Below, piece by piece: positions 10,281 to 64,000 of a stretch of DNA of 64,000 bases. The notes below the pieces were generated by a model that was not told the DNA's origin, made no database searches, and was given only the letters and a program-made list of their open reading frames with translations. Source of the DNA: a phage. Location of the stretch: sequence record PX423614.1. One strand, given 5' to 3'. The position numbers and the translations under genes are program-made. Position 1 is the first letter of the stretch. Each line of letters begins with the position of its first letter.

Positions 10281-10712
10281 ATGTCTGATAAAGTATTAGT
10301 TGCAACGTATGGTTCTCTTCGTAAAGGTCAACACAACCACGCTATCAATGCTCGTGCAGGTGGTGTGTCTATTGGTGAAGGGTGGACAGTAAACAACTGT
10401 AACCTGTATCAGTATTGCACAGCATACTTCCCAAGTGTATCTTTGGAGCATGACAGCAATGGTAAGCCTGTTCGTGTAGAAGTCTTTGAAACAACCCAAG
10501 CTGGTCTGGAAGGTCCGTATGACGGTCTGGAAGGTCATCGTGGTAATGATAACCCATACACCTTTTACAAGCGTACACTGATTCCAGTATTATTGGACAG
10601 CGGTGAAACTGTGGAAGCGTGGATTTATCACATCGACGAAGAACAAGATGTTCTGGTTGAATCTGGTGACTGGACAGCATATCTGGCAGGTGAGAAGGAT
10701 GACAGTAACTGA
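10281..10712 (+). CDS. gamma-glutamyl cyclotransferase-like (AIG2/GGCT fold) protein
   Basis: N-terminal YGSLRKGQHNH matches the YGSL-x-x-G-x-x-NH signature of GGCT/AIG2-like enzymes. Confidence 0.5.
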   Translation: MSDKVLVATYGSLRKGQHNHAINARAGGVSIGEGWTVNNCNLYQYCTAYFPSVSLEHDSNGKPVRVEVFETTQAGLEGPYDGLEGHRGNDNPYTFYKRTLIPVLLDSGETVEAWIYHIDEEQDVLVESGDWTAYLAGEKDDSN

Positions 10713-10905
10713 CAGGCAGAAGTTAAGAAAGCTGGAATCTGACTACTTGAAGATGCGGTGGAAGATTAATCGTTATGAAAAGTTTGTCAGTATGCTCACA
10801 CCTGATAAGCACTCTGAAGAATTTATTCACAGAACAAAGCAAACCTTGCAGGGTTTTAGAAACTTGCAAGATGATGTGTGGGAAGAAATACGATCGTTTT
10901 ACTAA
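10699..10905 (+). CDS. hypothetical small protein (68 aa)
   Basis: ATG at 10699 preceded by GAGAAGG; in frame with track ORF 10603..10905. Confidence 0.35.
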   Translation: MTVTDRQKLRKLESDYLKMRWKINRYEKFVSMLTPDKHSEEFIHRTKQTLQGFRNLQDDVWEEIRSFY

Positions 10906-27063: not shown

Positions 27064-27396
27064 AAGTTATTGTTTTAAGTTAAGTTTTCTTTTGATTTTA
27101 ATAGAGAATCAAAGTCCTAGGAGTCCTCAACCTAAATCAAGGATTTCCTTAATTCTCTATTTTTATCTCGCAGGTGTCTCCTGCCCTTCGGTACTTGCAA
27201 GGGTTACAATGATTGCCCAATATACAAGCCTGCAATAGCTTTACTAGCTATACCATATATACATTACTACTTGTCATTATCTACTACCAAAAAGGTTATA
27301 GTATAATAGAACCTTATCTGTATAAGTGTAATGTATATAGTATACAAACCGCTCAAAGAGAGCAACAATCTTAAATCTATATAAGGAAATATTAAT
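27064..27396. promoter_or_regulatory. long AT-rich noncoding region with inverted repeats and promoter-like elements (candidate promoter cluster / origin)
   Basis: 333-bp gap in otherwise tightly packed genome; TAGAGAAT...ATTCTCTA inverted repeat; perfect TATAAT at 27302-27307; two copies of the AATGTATATA-type motif in opposite orientation (27256-27266, 27328-27339). Confidence 0.4.
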
Positions 27397-36523: not shown

Positions 36524-36593
36524 AACGTCTCCTTATAAATAAAAATGTCCTACCTCCTATATACATTATAAGAGATAGGACTTAGGTCTTAGA

Positions 36594-43174: not shown

Positions 43175-46100
43175 TTATCTTCGACCGCCAACACTAAACT
43201 CTATGGTTAAACCATTCATAGAAGCATTACTGTTAACATCATTATCTATAACATTATAGAATAGGTATGGATGGTTCAGTCTCACGGATACATGACGATC
43301 TGAGCCTACCCTAAACTCTTTAGTTGAGTGATTGTGTCCATACTCGTTTGAGAATTGACTTCCACCGACTTCAAAAGTATAAGTACCTGTACCAGTAACT
43401 TGAGGTCTAAATCTATTAATATGTTTTTGATTCCACTCATTAGTGACATTATCAAAATCAATACCAGTTCTTTCTAACCTCATTTCTAAAGGTTTTTCTA
43501 TAATCCTATCATTGGTTCTATCATAGATGTAGTCCAGAGCACCAACATCCACTTGATAGAATCCCTTCAGGAAAGAGCCAACTATTGTAATCCTTTGACG
43601 GAAGTTATTAGCATCCTTTCTCCAGACTAATTGGTTAATAGAGGGATCATCCCAAGTGATCTCTTGAAAATCTGCCCAGATTGGACCTCTCTCAAGAACT
43701 GGTGGATCGACTAACCCAATACACTGAGCATATGGTATTGTACGGAAAGACCAAGTGTCAAACTCATAATTCCAAACAGCGGCTTTATTACAAGCAAAAC
43801 TCTCTTTAGGCTCTCCCGGACCTACATATAAAACCCAAACCTCTTTCTTGTCTTGGTGTAGGTGAACTCTAGTAGCTAGAGGGTTTACTAGACAGATCTC
43901 ATTAATGAGAAGATTCTTGACTCGGTTAGATGCTATAGATTTTTTAGATGCACCATTATGTAAGATCACATCATTTTGAGTTACTACGAAGTGTCCACCT
44001 TCGACTTCAACTGCACACTCAGGAGCAAGTATGCCAGAGTCATTAAACAGTTTCTTAAACATAAGGGGCTGATATGTGTTATTGGTTGGAGAACCAATGT
44101 AGGTTTCGAACTCCGTGTAAACAAAAAGGTAATCTTTCAGAGGAAGTACATCAATCAAGCTTCCGTTAGAATCTGCTAAATCTATATACCCAGCGTACCC
44201 ATTTTCCAAAGCCTCAGTTTGACCAACAATGTTTGCTGATAGGTCTGAAGTTGTTAAACGATCATAAGCATAATCATCCCAAAGAGATGGAGCTTTGTTT
44301 TCGTTAGCGAAATTCGACCACCGAAGTCTTAGAGGGTAGTGAGTAGTTACACCAGATGCATTAGATTCCCTCATATTCAGAGCAAAAAGTCTGTTGTTGA
44401 ATGCACGAATACGCTCACACTTCCAGTTAAATTTCTTAACAGAAGGGTTGCCATCATTATCAACGACTGTTTGCTCACCCCATCCCGGAAGATCTACGAA
44501 ATACTCAGATTCAAACTCTTTGACCTGTGGTGTTTCATAATGAGTGGTAGCCACTGCACAGTTAGAGATTATGGTGTGATACCAAGGATAGTCGTCAAAA
44601 GCATCATAATCTTTCTGAGTCATTTGACTAGCAGTACAAGTAACTTTGATCTCACCTTTACGAATAGCTGTCAGTTTTAGAGATTTCCCGGTAGTAGATG
44701 TGGTTGAAACATATCCTGCTTTGTCCACTGTCCACTGATAGAAATACTCTCCCTCAGGCAAAGCATTGGCTGTAATTACAATATCTTCCCCAACATCAAG
44801 AGAGGCATCGATGATATCTAGTGATAAAGATTGCAACGGAGTATCGCTGGACATGAGTGCAGCTCGTGCAAAACCTTCCATATCATTGACGTTTGAGTAA
44901 TCATAGAAGTTGTTACCTTCATACATTCCTGAGGTATCAACTCCAGATGGCTCATTAACAAAATATAAAACCTCTTCTGATTCGATAGGAACATTATTGG
45001 TTTCTTCTCGTATAGAATCTACTACAGGTTCTGATAAGGTCATTGCAGAAGTTCGCATCATTCTCCCAGCTAAATCAACCCTCACTGTACAGGTTGCTGA
45101 TCTATCACCCTCTTGAGTAACAGCTGTGATTTCAGTAAACCCAGCTAGTAACCCTGTTATTACCGCTTCTGTACTATTTCCAGAAACTGTGGCAATGGTA
45201 GGATTAGAGGAAGTCCAAGTTATGCTTTTATTGGGAGCATCTGAAGGATTAACCGTAGCAGTTAAAACATACTGAGTACCTCTGCTCATTTGAACGCTTG
45301 TCTGACTCAGAGTGATACTGTCTATCTGAGGTATAACAGTAACTTGACAAGAAGCACTCTTAGTTCCGTTATCAGCAGTTATTGTTACAGTACCCTCACC
45401 ATTAGCAGACAAAGTAGCTGTCAGTGTATTAGCATTAGGTGTTACAGACACAACAGAAGCATTACTAGAGACCCAAGTTACAGGAGTTTTTCCAGTAACA
45501 GCAGTTAGCGTTGTGTTACCACCTTTGCGGACAGTTATTGTATCCTGACTTAAGAAGATACCAGAATCACCATCTATGATGTTTACTGCAATCTGAGTAC
45601 TAATAGATTTATCAGCTGTTGATACAGTAACTACTAAATTCCCTTCTTTTTCATAAGACGTCAAGGTTGCAGTTTTAGAGTTCTCGGTGTCAGCTTCTAC
45701 TTTACCATAAGAAGAATTACTAACCTCCCAAACTAAAGCTGTGTTATTAGCATCTTCAGGAAGAATAGAAACTTCCAAGGTTTTAGTTTGATTGAAATTC
45801 ATTGAAATAGAAGTTTCTTTAGGAACAATCTGAGAAACAACCGGATATATCTTAATAGAAGCGGAAGCTCTTTTTGTGACAGTAGCAACCTTTCGGCTAA
45901 TATCTGTCAAACTTTCATCTGTTAGCTTGTATAGCTTTTTGTCTGTACCAACAATCAGAAAGCTATTACCTGCACTATAGTAGTCAAAAGGCATTGATAT
46001 AAAAGAAAGTGGTGTAATCTCTTTATCTTCTTCTACATAAGAAAGAGGGGCATTGCCCCCCGTCTTAAAAACTCTTTGCTCTACAAAGCGGGCATTGATA

Positions 46101-60342: not shown

Positions 60343-61896
60343 TTAGTAGGTCTGATTCCATCTGTTAATATTGTCTTGATAAAGCGATGAACTACCATAA
60401 CTAGCATCATGCTTACTACGTCCACGATGTGTTACAGAACAAGCTGAATATCGCATAGCATCCATCAAGTCATCGTGTTCCTTAACAATCTTGCCAACCT
60501 TACGGTGATAGCGAGCTTTCTCTTCAAAGAGTTTAGCACACGAAGCAATGTTAAAGATTTTGAAACGACCTGACATCATACGTTCACGAATATCAGTAAT
60601 TCCTGGCTCTACAAAGAAGTTCTTCTTACCATCCATTCCAATCTTGTTGTAGAAGGTCTCACTCTGTACGTTAACTCCTGCATTCTTATAGAATTGAGCA
60701 ACAGATGAACCACTTCCCTTCTCAATGTTATCGGCATCATGAGGAAGAATAACTGGAATCCACTGACCACGACCATTAATAGCTGGTGCATGATACACCG
60801 GAGTAAATCCACCTTCTTTATAGCAGTCATAAACATAAATCGTATCAGTGTTAGCATCATATGCTGTCCAAACAGCGGCTGTCGGGTGATCGATACCAAT
60901 ATCAATAGCACAAACACGTTTCCACGTATCAGGTATCTCAAAGGGATCACACTTAATCATGTCATCTGATACATCATAAATTAAACCAGAACCAAGCAAC
61001 GGCATACCTTTTGAACGCATCTCTAACTGCCATGCTGGAATACCTTCAGTCATATCTTTAATATCTTGGTCAGTGATGTGTCCACCTAAATCTACGTGAG
61101 CATCCCACCAAGAAGCGTTCTGGAAATATAGAGAACCTGTGTTCTCGTCCCCTTCACCTTTCATAAACTTATCCACCAGCTCTGTTAAACCGTTCTCTGG
61201 TGTAGCTGTAATAGTAACTAAACCTTTAGTTGTAAGTGTACGTGTTACACACTGAGAGAAGATTGCCATAGATTCGTATGGATCTTCTTCGTCCAGCCAA
61301 ATGTAATCAACCGTAGCACCCATCAATGTATGTTCACCCTGTTGGGTAGAACGGAACTCCAGCGTACTTAGACCATCAAACTCGCCTCTCGCGTTTTGAT
61401 GTTTAATCTGTACAATCTGTAATTTGTTCCCATCTCGTTCTATTGTATCAATGACAATAGCATCACGAGGAATAACACCTGTTCCTATTAGATTCATATC
61501 TTTTCCGATAGGTGTTCCAAACAATTCCTTTTGCAATACCTTTCTTGTAGAGTCCCCTGTAATCCCTACTGCCCAAGCCAATATGGGTCGATTAAATCTA
61601 TATCCTGTCCACCAAGTTGGGTAGCGACCTGTGACATGACAAGCAAACTCGTATGCCTCGCTGTAAGATTTACCAACACGGTTAGCTGCACACAGGAATC
61701 GGAAGCGATGCTTCAACCCTGCTGCATAGAATTTCTTCTGAAAGTCGTAAGCTTTAAAAGCTAACATCTTATTATATTTTCTCCACTGGTCCCTTTCTTT
61801 TAACATATTGAGCAAAGCTTTCTTCTCCTCTACACTCAACTTGTCTCCAGTTAGAGCTTCATAAATTTCTTTATCTAACGACATATATTCCTCCAA
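60343..61896 (-). CDS. terL: terminase large subunit
   Basis: Walker A-like LCAANRVGKS in N-terminal ATPase region; acidic residues in C-terminal nuclease region; size ~517 aa. Confidence 0.7.
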   Translation of the reverse strand: MEEYMSLDKEIYEALTGDKLSVEEKKALLNMLKERDQWRKYNKMLAFKAYDFQKKFYAAGLKHRFRFLCAANRVGKSYSEAYEFACHVTGRYPTWWTGYRFNRPILAWAVGITGDSTRKVLQKELFGTPIGKDMNLIGTGVIPRDAIVIDTIERDGNKLQIVQIKHQNARGEFDGLSTLEFRSTQQGEHTLMGATVDYIWLDEEDPYESMAIFSQCVTRTLTTKGLVTITATPENGLTELVDKFMKGEGDENTGSLYFQNASWWDAHVDLGGHITDQDIKDMTEGIPAWQLEMRSKGMPLLGSGLIYDVSDDMIKCDPFEIPDTWKRVCAIDIGIDHPTAAVWTAYDANTDTIYVYDCYKEGGFTPVYHAPAINGRGQWIPVILPHDADNIEKGSGSSVAQFYKNAGVNVQSETFYNKIGMDGKKNFFVEPGITDIRERMMSGRFKIFNIASCAKLFEEKARYHRKVGKIVKEHDDLMDAMRYSACSVTHRGRSKHDASYGSSSLYQDNINRWNQTY

Positions 61897-61950: not shown

Positions 61951-62418
61951 TTAACTCTCGTCCGCTTCCTCCTCCTTTTCAGCGTCCTCAGAGTCCTCTG
62001 GAGGTAGCACATCCACTTTCAGTGCACCAGTCAAGAAGTCTCGAATCTGTGCGTTCAGTGATTCTTCATTGATTACATTCTCTTCCTCAATCTTAACCTC
62101 AACAGAAGCTGCCTTAGGATATACCAGATCAGCGACTTTACTTGCAGCCTTGAATCTAAGATCAGGTGGAATATTTGGATCTTCATAAATCTGAATCAAC
62201 ACTTCATCAGGAGACAAATGACTAGCAGCAACACGATCGAGCATGAGCTGTGTCAATTTACCTCTACTACCTTTGGGACGTCCAAATTTATTACCTTTAG
62301 TGAACTTCCCTGTGCTTGGTTCCATGCCCTTGGATTCAAGTTCTTCCGTTACTCCGGGCAGTCTTCCTGTAATCTCAGCTACCTGTGCAGGCGTGAGTTC
62401 TCCTTTTTCTCCAAACAT
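61951..62418 (-). CDS. putative terminase small subunit
   Basis: Immediately upstream of terL; basic N-terminal GNKFGRPKGSRGK DNA-binding-like segment, acidic C-terminus. Confidence 0.35.
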   Translation of the reverse strand: MFGEKGELTPAQVAEITGRLPGVTEELESKGMEPSTGKFTKGNKFGRPKGSRGKLTQLMLDRVAASHLSPDEVLIQIYEDPNIPPDLRFKAASKVADLVYPKAASVEVKIEEENVINEESLNAQIRDFLTGALKVDVLPPEDSEDAEKEEEADES

Positions 62419-62483
62419 CTTATACTCCTTCTACATTATCGTTATAACAAAAAGCCTCCCACGAGAGGAGGCAACACCTTTTA

Positions 62484-63158
62484 TTAATCTACATCACCTA
62501 TGTGTAGGTTGAACAAAGTCTGGAGAGCTACAGTTTCACCTTCCCAGCTAACTGGAACAGATTTGTCATTCTCTACCTCAAAAGAAGAGGACGCCAAAAA
62601 TTTTTTGTATTCTTCAAGCTCGGGGTCCAGAGCTTGTTCACTAACATGCACCCACGTAACTACTTCATTACCTTCTTCATCAATTACTACATTACGAGAC
62701 CATTGCTCTTTTGAATTTAAATAGTTATTCAGAGCTTCATACTCGGCTTCTTCAATCATCTCAATCATCTCGCGGGCATAGTCCGGTAGGTGTGCATGTT
62801 TGTCGGATACATACGGAACAACTTCTAAATTGGAAGGAAGCTTACGTTTAACCTCTTTCGCTACAGTGAAATAATCTTTCACGTCTTTAGCTTCTGTACG
62901 AGGAATCAAACCTTCCCATAATTCACGGGTTGAAGGAGCATAACCATACACAGAATCATGAGCCAGTTGTTTTGCCATCTCAACTCGGGACTTACCTCCA
63001 GTAGTTTCATGAATACGGTTCAGATAGAAAGTGTCCTCTGATAAAGGACGGAGATTGCCATTATACGTAACTTCGCCTTTACATCCCATGTTCTCATAGA
63101 TTGCATTCAGTGTATTAGTTCCTGTCATATTATTCATCATTCTCTCCTTCAGCGCCAT
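62484..63158 (-). CDS. hypothetical protein (224 aa)
   Basis: ORF track. Confidence 0.5.
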   Translation of the reverse strand: MALKERMMNNMTGTNTLNAIYENMGCKGEVTYNGNLRPLSEDTFYLNRIHETTGGKSRVEMAKQLAHDSVYGYAPSTRELWEGLIPRTEAKDVKDYFTVAKEVKRKLPSNLEVVPYVSDKHAHLPDYAREMIEMIEEAEYEALNNYLNSKEQWSRNVVIDEEGNEVVTWVHVSEQALDPELEEYKKFLASSSFEVENDKSVPVSWEGETVALQTLFNLHIGDVD

Positions 63159-63393
63159 AGCGATAATCTTTATAAGTTTCAGCCTTGTAGGTTACAAAGC
63201 AACGCATGTACAACCAACCCAATGAACTCAGATCTATTGTCACATCAAAATCTTCATCGTCATCTAGGTCTACTAATCTACCCAAACAAGTTATTACTTC
63301 AGTGTCTCCAACTTCTTCAACTTTAAATGCACATTTCTCAGTGCGGAAGTAAGGAATCAACTCTGATAAAAAGTCTAGAAACATTTTATATCT
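63130..63393 (-). CDS. hypothetical protein (first gene of - block)
   Basis: Internal ATG at 63393 with RBS GAGGAG 8 nt upstream; track ORF extends to 63453. Confidence 0.45.
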   Translation of the reverse strand, partial: RYKMFLDFLSELIPYFRTEKCAFKVEEVGDTEVITCLGRLVDLDDDEDFDVTIDLSSLGWLYMRCFVTYKAETYKDYRYGAEGENDE

Positions 63394-63526
63394 CCTCTGA
63401 TAAAGGGAGGGGTCTTCACCCATAAAGGCGTACTCATCTAAAGGCCCACCCATCTAATCTCTGAAGTAAAGGGGACTCCATAAAGGCTACCCCACATTAA
63501 GGCATACCCATAAAGGCCATGTCATG

Positions 63527-63691
63527 TTAAGGCTTATCCACCCATTTACTATTCCTAACCTTACCACAGTCTGCGCATCTCCATGTACTCTTGTAATAAG
63601 CGTGTAACCGTTCATCACCTCTTGATATCCGGATTGGATAGTACTCGTGATTACATTTGAATTGCTTAATTAGTAACTTAATCTTCCACAT
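63527..63691 (-). CDS. small zinc-ribbon-like protein (54 aa)
   Basis: ATG at 63691 (- strand) with AAGGA upstream; C-x-H...C-x2-C arrangement; below ORF track cutoff. Confidence 0.2.
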   Translation of the reverse strand: MWKIKLLIKQFKCNHEYYPIRISRGDERLHAYYKSTWRCADCGKVRNSKWVDKP

Positions 63692-64000
63692 AAAATAGTT
63701 CCTTATTCTTATATATAAGAGTTTAAAATTTCAATTTGACCGAGTGGACCTAGCCTCTCCGAGCGCGTTTCCTAAAAAGGGGGAGTCCTCATTTAAATTG
63801 TGGATATTACCAATGCAATTGCCTTTAGGAAATCAACCAGCCTTTAAGCCCTAAGCCCTAGCTCCCTTGCTACCAGTGGCATACCTGCCCATAAATACCC
63901 TACCCATTAATATAAGCCATCTATTTAATACCCATGTATATCTAACCAGTATTCTCCCACCCGTATTTCTCTTACTCATGTTGAGAAGGGATGAAAGGCT

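Follow-up and report, generated by a model that had tools for sequence, protein, structure and literature searches.

What is the function of a dense array of short direct repeats located between one genome end and the terminase genes of a phiEco32-like phage? The window analyzed herein is the whole 64,000-nucleotide stretch of sequence record PX423614.1, which belongs to a phiEco32-like podophage (Gordonclarkvirinae) and is the reverse complement of the usual phiEco32 orientation. The array occupies positions 63401-63541 on the - strand and consists of eight tiled 15-bp units in a non-coding spacer. The array, its unit structure, its conservation, and its position were all directly observed. 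A sequence-only reading of this locus had described a protein-binding array and offered recognition by the small terminase, an origin, or an operator as its function. We tentatively propose that the array may be a platform on which a DNA-binding protein of the phage, the small terminase being the likeliest candidate, occupies multiple sites, and that it serves packaging.

The six copies listed in the sequence-only reading were all found on the + strand where it had placed them. CATAAAGGC is present on this strand at 63421, 63479, and 63509, which are its only three occurrences in the window, while TCTAAAGGC, ATTAAGGC, and GTTAAGGC are located at 63437, 63496, and 63526, respectively. Two degenerate TAAAGGG copies (63401-63407 and 63467-63473) complete the set of eight. 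The motif TAAAGGC/TTAAGGC occurs 12 times on the + strand in 64 kb, and half of these occurrences (6/12) are inside 63423-63533. On the - strand, which is the sense strand for the local genes, eight of the 19 occurrences of [GC]CCTT[TA]A in 64 kb fall within the 133 bp of 63401-63533. The Poisson probability of this core enrichment was 3e-18 (approximately 1e-15 after correction for all windows), and first-order Markov simulations gave a maximum of two cores per 140 bp. All eight cores are direct repeats in a single orientation.

Along the direction of transcription, the core start-to-start steps are 16, 14, 16, 14, 28, 16, and 22 bp, and the units form two sub-arrays. Sub-array I (63467-63541, -) comprises units 1-5, the cores of which are located at 63527-63533, 63511-63517, 63497-63503, 63481-63487, and 63467-63473 (steps of 16/14/16/14 bp). 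Sub-array II (63401-63453, -) comprises units 6-8, with cores at 63439-63445, 63423-63429, and 63401-63407. The sub-arrays are 28 nt apart in the window, whereas this gap measures 37-39 nt in most relatives. A logo was prepared from units aligned on the core, eight from the window and 71 unique units from 15 phages. It revealed a second half-site, A/G-T-G, at -8 to -6 relative to the core (0 to +6), with approximately 1.3-1.4 bits at T and G. Since this half-site is conserved, the unit was defined as RTG-N5-[GC]CCTT[TA]A, 15 bp in length. The centers of the two half-sites are approximately 10.5 bp apart, i.e., about one helical turn. Units are tiled head to tail, and the steps counted over 18 genomes were 14 bp (28 times), 16 bp (33 times), 13 bp (once), and 15 bp (once). 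The base composition of the array is 47% G+C.

The features inward from the genome end are, in order, a predicted direct terminal repeat (DTR), a sigma-70-like promoter, gene A, the array, gene B, gene C, a terminator and late promoter, the putative small terminase gene, the large terminase gene, and the portal gene. Therefore, the array is an intergenic spacer within a small left-end operon. It is located approximately 220-350 bp inward of the DTR boundary (63752/63753) and approximately 1 kb from the putative small terminase and large terminase genes. The sequence-only reading had placed the array upstream of the first - strand genes, which needs correction: the array lies between two - strand open reading frames (ORFs), namely, 63527-63691 (gene A) and 63130-63384 (gene B), and gene A, the upstream ORF, ends with a stop codon that shares bases with the first core.

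The array was compared between two sets of relatives. The GenBank set contained 15 phiEco32-group phages from Suseptimavirus, Kuravirus, and Nieuwekanaalvirus (the Bas87 record is without a genus), and the metagenomic set contained contigs L104-L107, which are 24-100 kb in length and encode a small terminase with 75-79% identity. The expectation that the repeats recur in related phages was borne out, as the array is kept in one orientation in all 18 related genomes scanned. The array and sub-array I are present in 15/15 GenBank phages, in which the array begins at the gene A stop codon or behind an extra small ORF. Core columns are conserved more than spacer columns (0.84 vs 0.71, Mann-Whitney p 0.005). 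L104-L107 are without genes A and B, yet each possesses 5-7 cores, all on the same strand and not allocated to sub-arrays, downstream of a terminal element and promoter shared with the window. In L104/L105 (2640-2760), three cores CCCTTTAtgccttcGCCTTTAgttgataagCCCTTTA with 14/16-bp steps are located in the 5' part of the reading frame of the gene C homologue, and the DNA motif appears to be maintained through the coding sequence. In 18/18 genomes, the first core is 123-386 nt inward of the conserved terminal element, the distance depending on the genome, and the array is upstream of the small and large terminase genes wherever the sequence stretch reaches them. Gene C and the terminase genes were found with the array in every case.

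These comparisons bear on whether the repeats have a dedicated function at all. They may be a self-propagating product of slippage or unequal recombination that provides, at most, short homologies for the gain and loss of small early genes. The copy number varies between 4 (LAMP) and 8, EK010, PAS59, and Bas87 have exactly one 16-nt unit fewer, and small ORFs have been inserted between repeats with a duplicated CTTTATCAGAGG junction, all of which are consistent with such an origin. However, the array is kept over four named genera or lineages and in deeper metagenomic relatives, its spacers diverge faster than its cores, the 14/16 steps are strict, the second half-site is conserved, and the array is preserved inside a coding region. 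Furthermore, a pattern scan of IMG/VR found the degenerate array in one phage group only, Kuravirus-like contigs, and the other 70-odd matches were perfect tandem or coding repeats. We regard the absence of a dedicated function as improbable. An unrelated 41.5-kb IMG/VR contig contains a perfect 3 x 15-bp tandem of GCCTTTATGGGTAAT (10671-10715), identical to the consensus unit. This tandem is intergenic, between small ORFs and tail-fibre-like genes, and is probably a coincidence.

The suggestion that proteins bind the array gained good, though indirect, support from the enrichment, the one orientation, the rigid bipartite unit, the 14/16 steps, the conservation of the cores, and the persistence of the array as its neighbors change. 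Among the three functions offered with it, packaging fits best, and an operator and an iteron origin are both disfavored. The rigid bipartite unit, strict spacing, one orientation, independence from the flanking small genes, and survival within an ORF point to duplex-DNA binding sites for an oligomeric protein. The main early genes and four mapped early promoters of phiEco32 are located at the opposite genome end (PMC8948821). A packaging-recognition platform is favored since the array has the predicted DTR cut site on one side and the terminase genes on the other, at the genome end away from the main early region. Its likeness to the terminal arrays of T7 and T3 also speaks for this role. In the model that we envision, an oligomeric phage protein that recognizes a specific DNA sequence would bind the eight head-to-tail sites. 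This protein would most likely be the small terminase, which, by itself or together with a partner, would dock and assemble on the array at the terminase-proximal end. On concatemers, the bound complex would position the large terminase for cleavage at the GCT|AG boundaries that enclose the 248-bp terminal repeat, and packaging would then start toward the terminase genes. The position of the array suggests that its end is packaged first and ejected last, as is the case for the cosB end of lambda. Protein binding, the identity of the binder, and the link to packaging are the parts of the model that we infer.

Several points weigh against this model. The distance from the first core to the DTR boundary is approximately 215 nt in the window and SU10 and approximately 480 nt in 4E8, small ORFs are inserted exactly in the gap between the two sub-arrays in phiEco32, ES17, and 1-6bf, and LAMP is without sub-array II. 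Due to this variable distance, the array split by ORFs, and the array of LAMP, a rigid cosB-like geometry is unlikely. The 14/16-bp spacing is out of helical phase and awkward for simple ring wrapping. The co-occurrence of gene C with the array is as good as that of the small terminase, and, thus, the gene C product is an equally possible binder. The array is transcribed in a sigma-70-driven operon, and, thus, a regulatory role is possible. A close parallel to the array, the terminal arrays of T7 described below, has to our knowledge no established function, and the accessible literature gave no discussion of them. Moreover, the five nucleotides TAAAG shared between the 7-bp motifs of the two systems could be due to chance, for which a rough estimate is a few percent.

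A regulatory role would mean that a phage or host protein on the repeats controls the left-end operon A/B/C, either by acting as a roadblock or repressor against sigma-70 transcription that would otherwise run on into the late packaging genes or through autoregulation by the gene C product. The sigma-70-like promoter predicted for genes A/B/C (63705-63734, -) reads TTGAAA-18-AAGAAT or an overlapping TATATA, and its sequence is conserved in all relatives. The array is within this transcription unit, 170-330 nt downstream of the promoter, and gene C, which is confined to array-bearing phages, is always directly downstream of the array or gene B. Both findings are consistent with regulation. However, no promoter is within or overlaps the array. 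Neither a sigma-70-like site nor a gp36-type AATGTA(T) site was found in the array, and the AATGTAT sites of the window are elsewhere. The gp36 consensus is AATGTA (PMC12276001, PMC4281155). The AATGTG in unit 3 was rejected as a gp36 promoter because it is without the upstream TGGTAG or TAAGACC seen at the gp36-type sites of the window and is not conserved in EK010 or PAS59. The repeats are also direct and not dyad-symmetric, gene C has no recognizable DNA-binding domain, a terminator already parts the operon from the late genes, and the array is kept without genes A and B. Genes A and B are excluded as obligatory partners of the array, and either of them as the binder is unlikely, because L104-L107 keep the array without both. 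We consider regulation of the operon through the array to be unlikely.

A replication origin is another reading, in which the repeats would either be iterons bound by an initiator or mark a zone close to the genome end where the phage primase-helicase is loaded or primes. Same-orientation tandem direct repeats in a non-coding region are typical of iteron origins, and an AT-rich promoter region (63695-63745) is located 160 bp from the array. In T7, the phiOL promoter, a secondary origin, is just inside the left array. In contrast, the 15-bp units at 14/16 bp are shorter than the known iterons of 17-22 bp, which are helically phased, whereas the present units are out of helical phase. The flanking ORFs are without initiator-like domains, there is no AT-rich unwinding element directly beside the 47% G+C array, and insertions of 100-180 bp can split the array. 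An origin at this position appears to be quite improbable.

The repeats may alternatively act in the early transcript, in which CCUUUAUG repeats would form an unstructured platform for an RNA-binding protein or epsilon-like translational enhancers. All copies are sense-oriented. The minimum free energy of the array RNA was -36.8 kcal/mol against a shuffle mean of -43.9 kcal/mol (z +1.7). It folds worse than 196/200 shuffles, which fits an RNA that is kept unstructured. The last unit is 13 nt before the Shine-Dalgarno sequence of gene B, GAGGAG, and TTAACTTTA of phiEco32 precedes the ribosome-binding site of an inserted ORF. We take TTAACTTTA to be identical to the epsilon enhancer of T7 gene 10. 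However, CYTTWA precedes only 9/97 gene starts. A genome-wide CTTTA translational enhancer was rejected on this count, several of the nine being terminator tails. The array is detached from gene B in ES17 and is inside an ORF in L104/L105, the distance of one helical turn between the GCC and RTG half-sites suggests that the DNA duplex is recognized, and related copies in the terminal repeat are upstream of the sigma-70-like promoter and, thus, outside the transcript. The array had no relevant match to an Rfam family. A function at the RNA level is very improbable. A structured RNA was excluded by the worse-than-shuffle folding and the lack of an Rfam family, and a coding array was excluded because relatives do not share the in-frame ATG of the window (63453) and the window and EK010 differ by indels that are not multiples of three.

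The nearest records, EK010, SU7, and Bas87, have approximately 90-92% identity across the last 1.6 kb of the window. The last base of the window corresponds to position 1 of the NC-B, SU7, and phiEco32 records, and the EK010 record diverges exactly after ...GATGAAAGGCT. This coincidence of record starts and the divergence point of EK010 indicate that base 64000 of the window is the physical left terminus. A DTR of 248 bp (63753-64000) is predicted by homology to the annotated repeats of phiEco32 (193 bp), 4E8 (206 bp), and NC-B (250 bp). The string GCT|AG(C/G) is present at both predicted boundaries (63740-63765 and 63990-64000). The left end starts with AGCCTTTC..., the inner boundary is ...GAGAGGCT|AGGTCC, and the SU10 counterpart is GCGGCT|AGCCCC. 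This shared string suggests a common nick or cut site of the terminase. The first 8 nt of the genome (AGCCTTTC) resemble the array core. The GenBank record of EK010 has a 97-nt head-tail overlap followed by 38 nt that match neither end. These terminal 38 nt are probably an assembly artefact, in which case the record was not opened at the true termini.

The array is part of a larger set of oriented short repeats that fill the left-terminal 600 bp. A second oriented motif, A[CT]GGG[TG], is present seven times in the terminal 620 nt, where 0.37 copies would be expected (P 1e-7), and is absent from the opposite strand. Four copies, of the form A[CT]GGG[TGC], are in the outer terminal repeat (63888-63964, -; ends at 63893, 63907, 63935, and 63964), and the motif recurs in the array in the same orientation (TTATGGGT). 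The terminal repeat also contains two inverted cores (63821-63846, +), GCCTTTA at 63821-63827 and 63840-63846, opposite to the array. One terminal-repeat core copy (TAAAGGCATTGCC) is conserved in Kuravirus terminal repeats. A second TAAAGGC cluster is absent from EK010 1-40000, and the motif is at only one genome end. In relatives (PAS59, Bas87, EK010 110-240), the right-end unique DNA beside the terminal repeat, across the concatemer junction from the array, contains 3-5 copies of a different repeat, CATAGGTTATCA / TGATAACCTATG. In the terminal repeat, GGGTAGGG (63895-63905; AATGGGTAGGGTA on the - strand) fits the E. coli FtsK-orienting KOPS consensus GGGNAGGG. This KOPS-like site is conserved in L106/L107 and may be due to chance.

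The most conserved terminal element is CAATTTAAATGAGGACTCCCCCTTTTTAGGAAACGCGC (63763-63800, -), within the terminal repeat. It matches the "highly conserved region ~130-170" of the terminal repeat reported previously (PMC9965538). Strings recognizably akin to this element (AAATGAGGACTCCCCCTTTTTAGG), namely, GACCCACTTCCCC(T)n ... ATGAGAGAGGAC, are present in Salmonella phage 7-11 (L017 1190-1250) and Aeromonas phage LAh_9 (L018 2925-2975), upstream of the small terminase genes. In these two phages, the interval from the terminal element to the small terminase gene contains different short repeats (TCAGTG x6, GGCATG x5), which were of borderline significance, and the repeats of 7-11 overlap its mapped late-promoter element, GTAAtg.

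Gene A (63527-63691, -) is a 54-aa zinc-ribbon ORF (Cys-x-His...Cys-x2-Cys) that belongs to phrog_7696, which has no assigned function, and its TAA stop codon is inside the first core. Gene B (63130-63384, -) is an 84-aa, very acidic ORF (phrog_12698). Gene C (62484-63158, -) is a 224-aa ORF with no assigned function that carries the PHROG label "ABC transporter". A Pfam match was not obtained for gene C, and nucleotide-binding motifs were not seen by inspection. This label, which is used in PHROG and RefSeq, looks like a propagated annotation error. Gene C accompanies the array in every lineage examined and is found only in array-bearing phages, and its 96 records are all from Escherichia or Shigella phages. 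The AlphaFold2 model of gene C had a predicted local distance difference test score (pLDDT) of 43.6, which is too poor for use.

The candidate for the binder in our model, the putative small terminase (61951-62418, -), is a 155-aa protein, and its gene immediately precedes that of the large terminase. When 30 homologues were combined into a profile, it matched two solved small terminases, 7joq (E 0.014) and PaP3 6w7t (E 0.31), and these matches span the conserved DP...RFKAA..D helix. A weak match to DUF5681 was also obtained, and a published HHpred analysis made the same assignment (PMC9965538). Based on these matches, its identification as the small terminase is plausible. Its model had a pLDDT of 65, also too poor for use, and Foldseek against the PDB gave no match. 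The most conserved segment is an extended basic arm with an invariant F-KGN-x-GRPKGSR. We speculate that this arm is AT-hook-like and that it could recognize the TTTA/TTAA tract within the core. The idea that the presence of the array covaries with a helix-like N-terminal insert of 14 aa in the small terminase was rejected, since L106/L107 are without the insert and possess the array. The large terminase (60343-61896, -) contains Terminase_6N and Terminase_6C.

An intrinsic terminator (62454-62472) followed by a gp36-type late promoter is located between gene C and the small terminase gene (62431-62472, -). The promoter, ATAATGTAG at 62431-62439, is the equivalent of phiEco32 P6. It contains the gp36 consensus AATGTA at 62432-62437 (-) and is a mapped-type late promoter approximately 1 kb from the array. 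Promoters dependent on gp36 have been mapped in phiEco32 upstream of genes 6, 13, 26, 40, 58, and 68 (PMC8948821), and none of these coincides with the array. Late-type gp36 promoter candidates in the window are located at 36567 (-), 53937 (-), and 62432-62437 (-), and precede a 1481-aa tail-fibre-like gene, a 170-aa gene, and the small terminase gene. The candidates at 36567 and 53937 have TAAGACC in common, approximately 17 nt upstream of AATGTAT. In the middle-gene region, back-to-back gp36-type promoter-like sites are present at 27265 (-) and 27330 (+), approximately 65 bp apart, each with TGGTAGTAGAT approximately 20 nt upstream of AATGTATAT. The site at 27265 (-) points in the direction opposite to the + strand genes around it, at a location where GC skew becomes negative.

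A description of the array was not found in the accessible literature on phiEco32-like phages. The SU10 paper described only a different repeat, inside the terminal repeat (PMC4281155). A 2026 review noted that the recognition and processing of concatemer junctions by DTR phages (T7, T3, T5, and phiEco32-like phages) is poorly understood in comparison with cos and headful systems (PMC13595956). As a candidate recognition element, the array is conserved, has sharp limits, and is easy to mutate, and it comes from a second, unrelated family of phages that is widely used in E. coli phage therapy. If the array is a packaging signal, transducing or packaging vectors for this phage group become designable. 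If it is not, the array would be a conserved but ordinary regulatory spacer.

The array may be compared with several known systems. The centromere-like parC array of plasmid R1 is bound by ribbon-helix-helix proteins. The gapless tiling of short direct repeats in two blocks is similar in the two cases and suggests cooperative coating by a small protein. In contrast to parC, partition genes are not present, the phage is lytic, and a nearby ribbon-helix-helix protein was not identified. The cosB site of lambda (R3-R2-R1) and pacL/pacR of SPP1 are closer counterparts. They share with the array short direct repeats between the cut site and terminase genes on the side that would be packaged first, an arrangement in two sub-clusters, and a downstream small terminase gene (putative in the window) with a conserved basic N-terminal region. 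However, the distance to the cut site varies among relatives of the window (approximately 215-480 nt), and the ends are 248-bp direct repeats here instead of cohesive ends or headful cuts. An IHF-like site was not recognized in the gap between the sub-arrays, which was inspected by eye only. If the packaging model is true, which we consider possible, the array would be the functional counterpart of lambda cosB or SPP1 pacL/pacR, as well as of the repeat arrays of T7 and T3.

The array also resembles the terminal arrays of T7 and T3, which are reportedly named SRL and SRR in T7 by Dunn and Studier in 1983. In T7, the 160-bp terminal repeat contains three copies of C[CAT]TAAAG and is followed by approximately 12 more, one every 12-13 bp, and T3 has the same motif. 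Gene 19.5 of T7 follows closely on the large terminase gene, and the right-hand array separates gene 19.5 from the terminal repeat. Read toward the genome end, this array gives CCATAAAG/CCTAAAG and includes CCATAAAGAG, CCTAAAG, and CCTAAGG. In both T7/T3 and the window, cores of approximately 7 bp contain TAAAG (CATAAAGGC, CTAAAGGC, and TTAAGGC on the + strand of the window), the direct copies all point the same way and follow one another every 12-16 bp, apart from occasional longer gaps, and the array is by a short direct terminal repeat that contains extra core copies, with a small ORF nearby. Furthermore, the terminase-proximal right array of T7 shares its end-relative polarity with CCATAAAGGC on the + strand of the window. 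However, the phage families differ and their terminase proteins are unrelated. The bipartite RTG-N5-core unit and the strict 14/16-bp step of the window differ from the step of approximately 13 bp in T7/T3. A promoter and a 54-aa gene part the array from the terminal repeat here, and the array is transcribed. The copies within the repeat are inverted here, whereas the three of T7 are in the array orientation, and the motif is on both sides of the concatemer junction in T7/T3 and at one end only here. The resemblance in core, polarity, spacing, and location does not by itself establish homology. The array is a further case of oriented short repeats beside DTRs, with a distinctive 15-bp bipartite unit and strict 14/16-bp register. 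Its resemblance to the T7 arrays suggests that those long-unexplained repeats be tested in parallel.

Phage LUZ24 provides a third case for comparison. Its large terminase is 38% identical to that of the window, and the structure of a member of its small terminase family has been solved. Similar to the window, several short repeat families are located just inside its terminase-proximal DTR. We noted CTGGATMAAGG x3, GTATAYCTATRGAAC x3, and CTTAAG(A) x6 at 44,900-45,440 of LUZ24, around two sigma-70 promoters. We speculate, as an unlikely generalization, that the GCCTTWA array, the C[CAT]TAAAG arrays of T7/T3, and those of LUZ24 may form one functional class of terminase recognition platforms in DTR phages, perhaps read in part via the minor groove of the short TTTA/TTAA tract by a conserved small terminase arm of the GRPKG type. 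If this is true, unrelated podophages would share a common logic for the processing of concatemer junctions.

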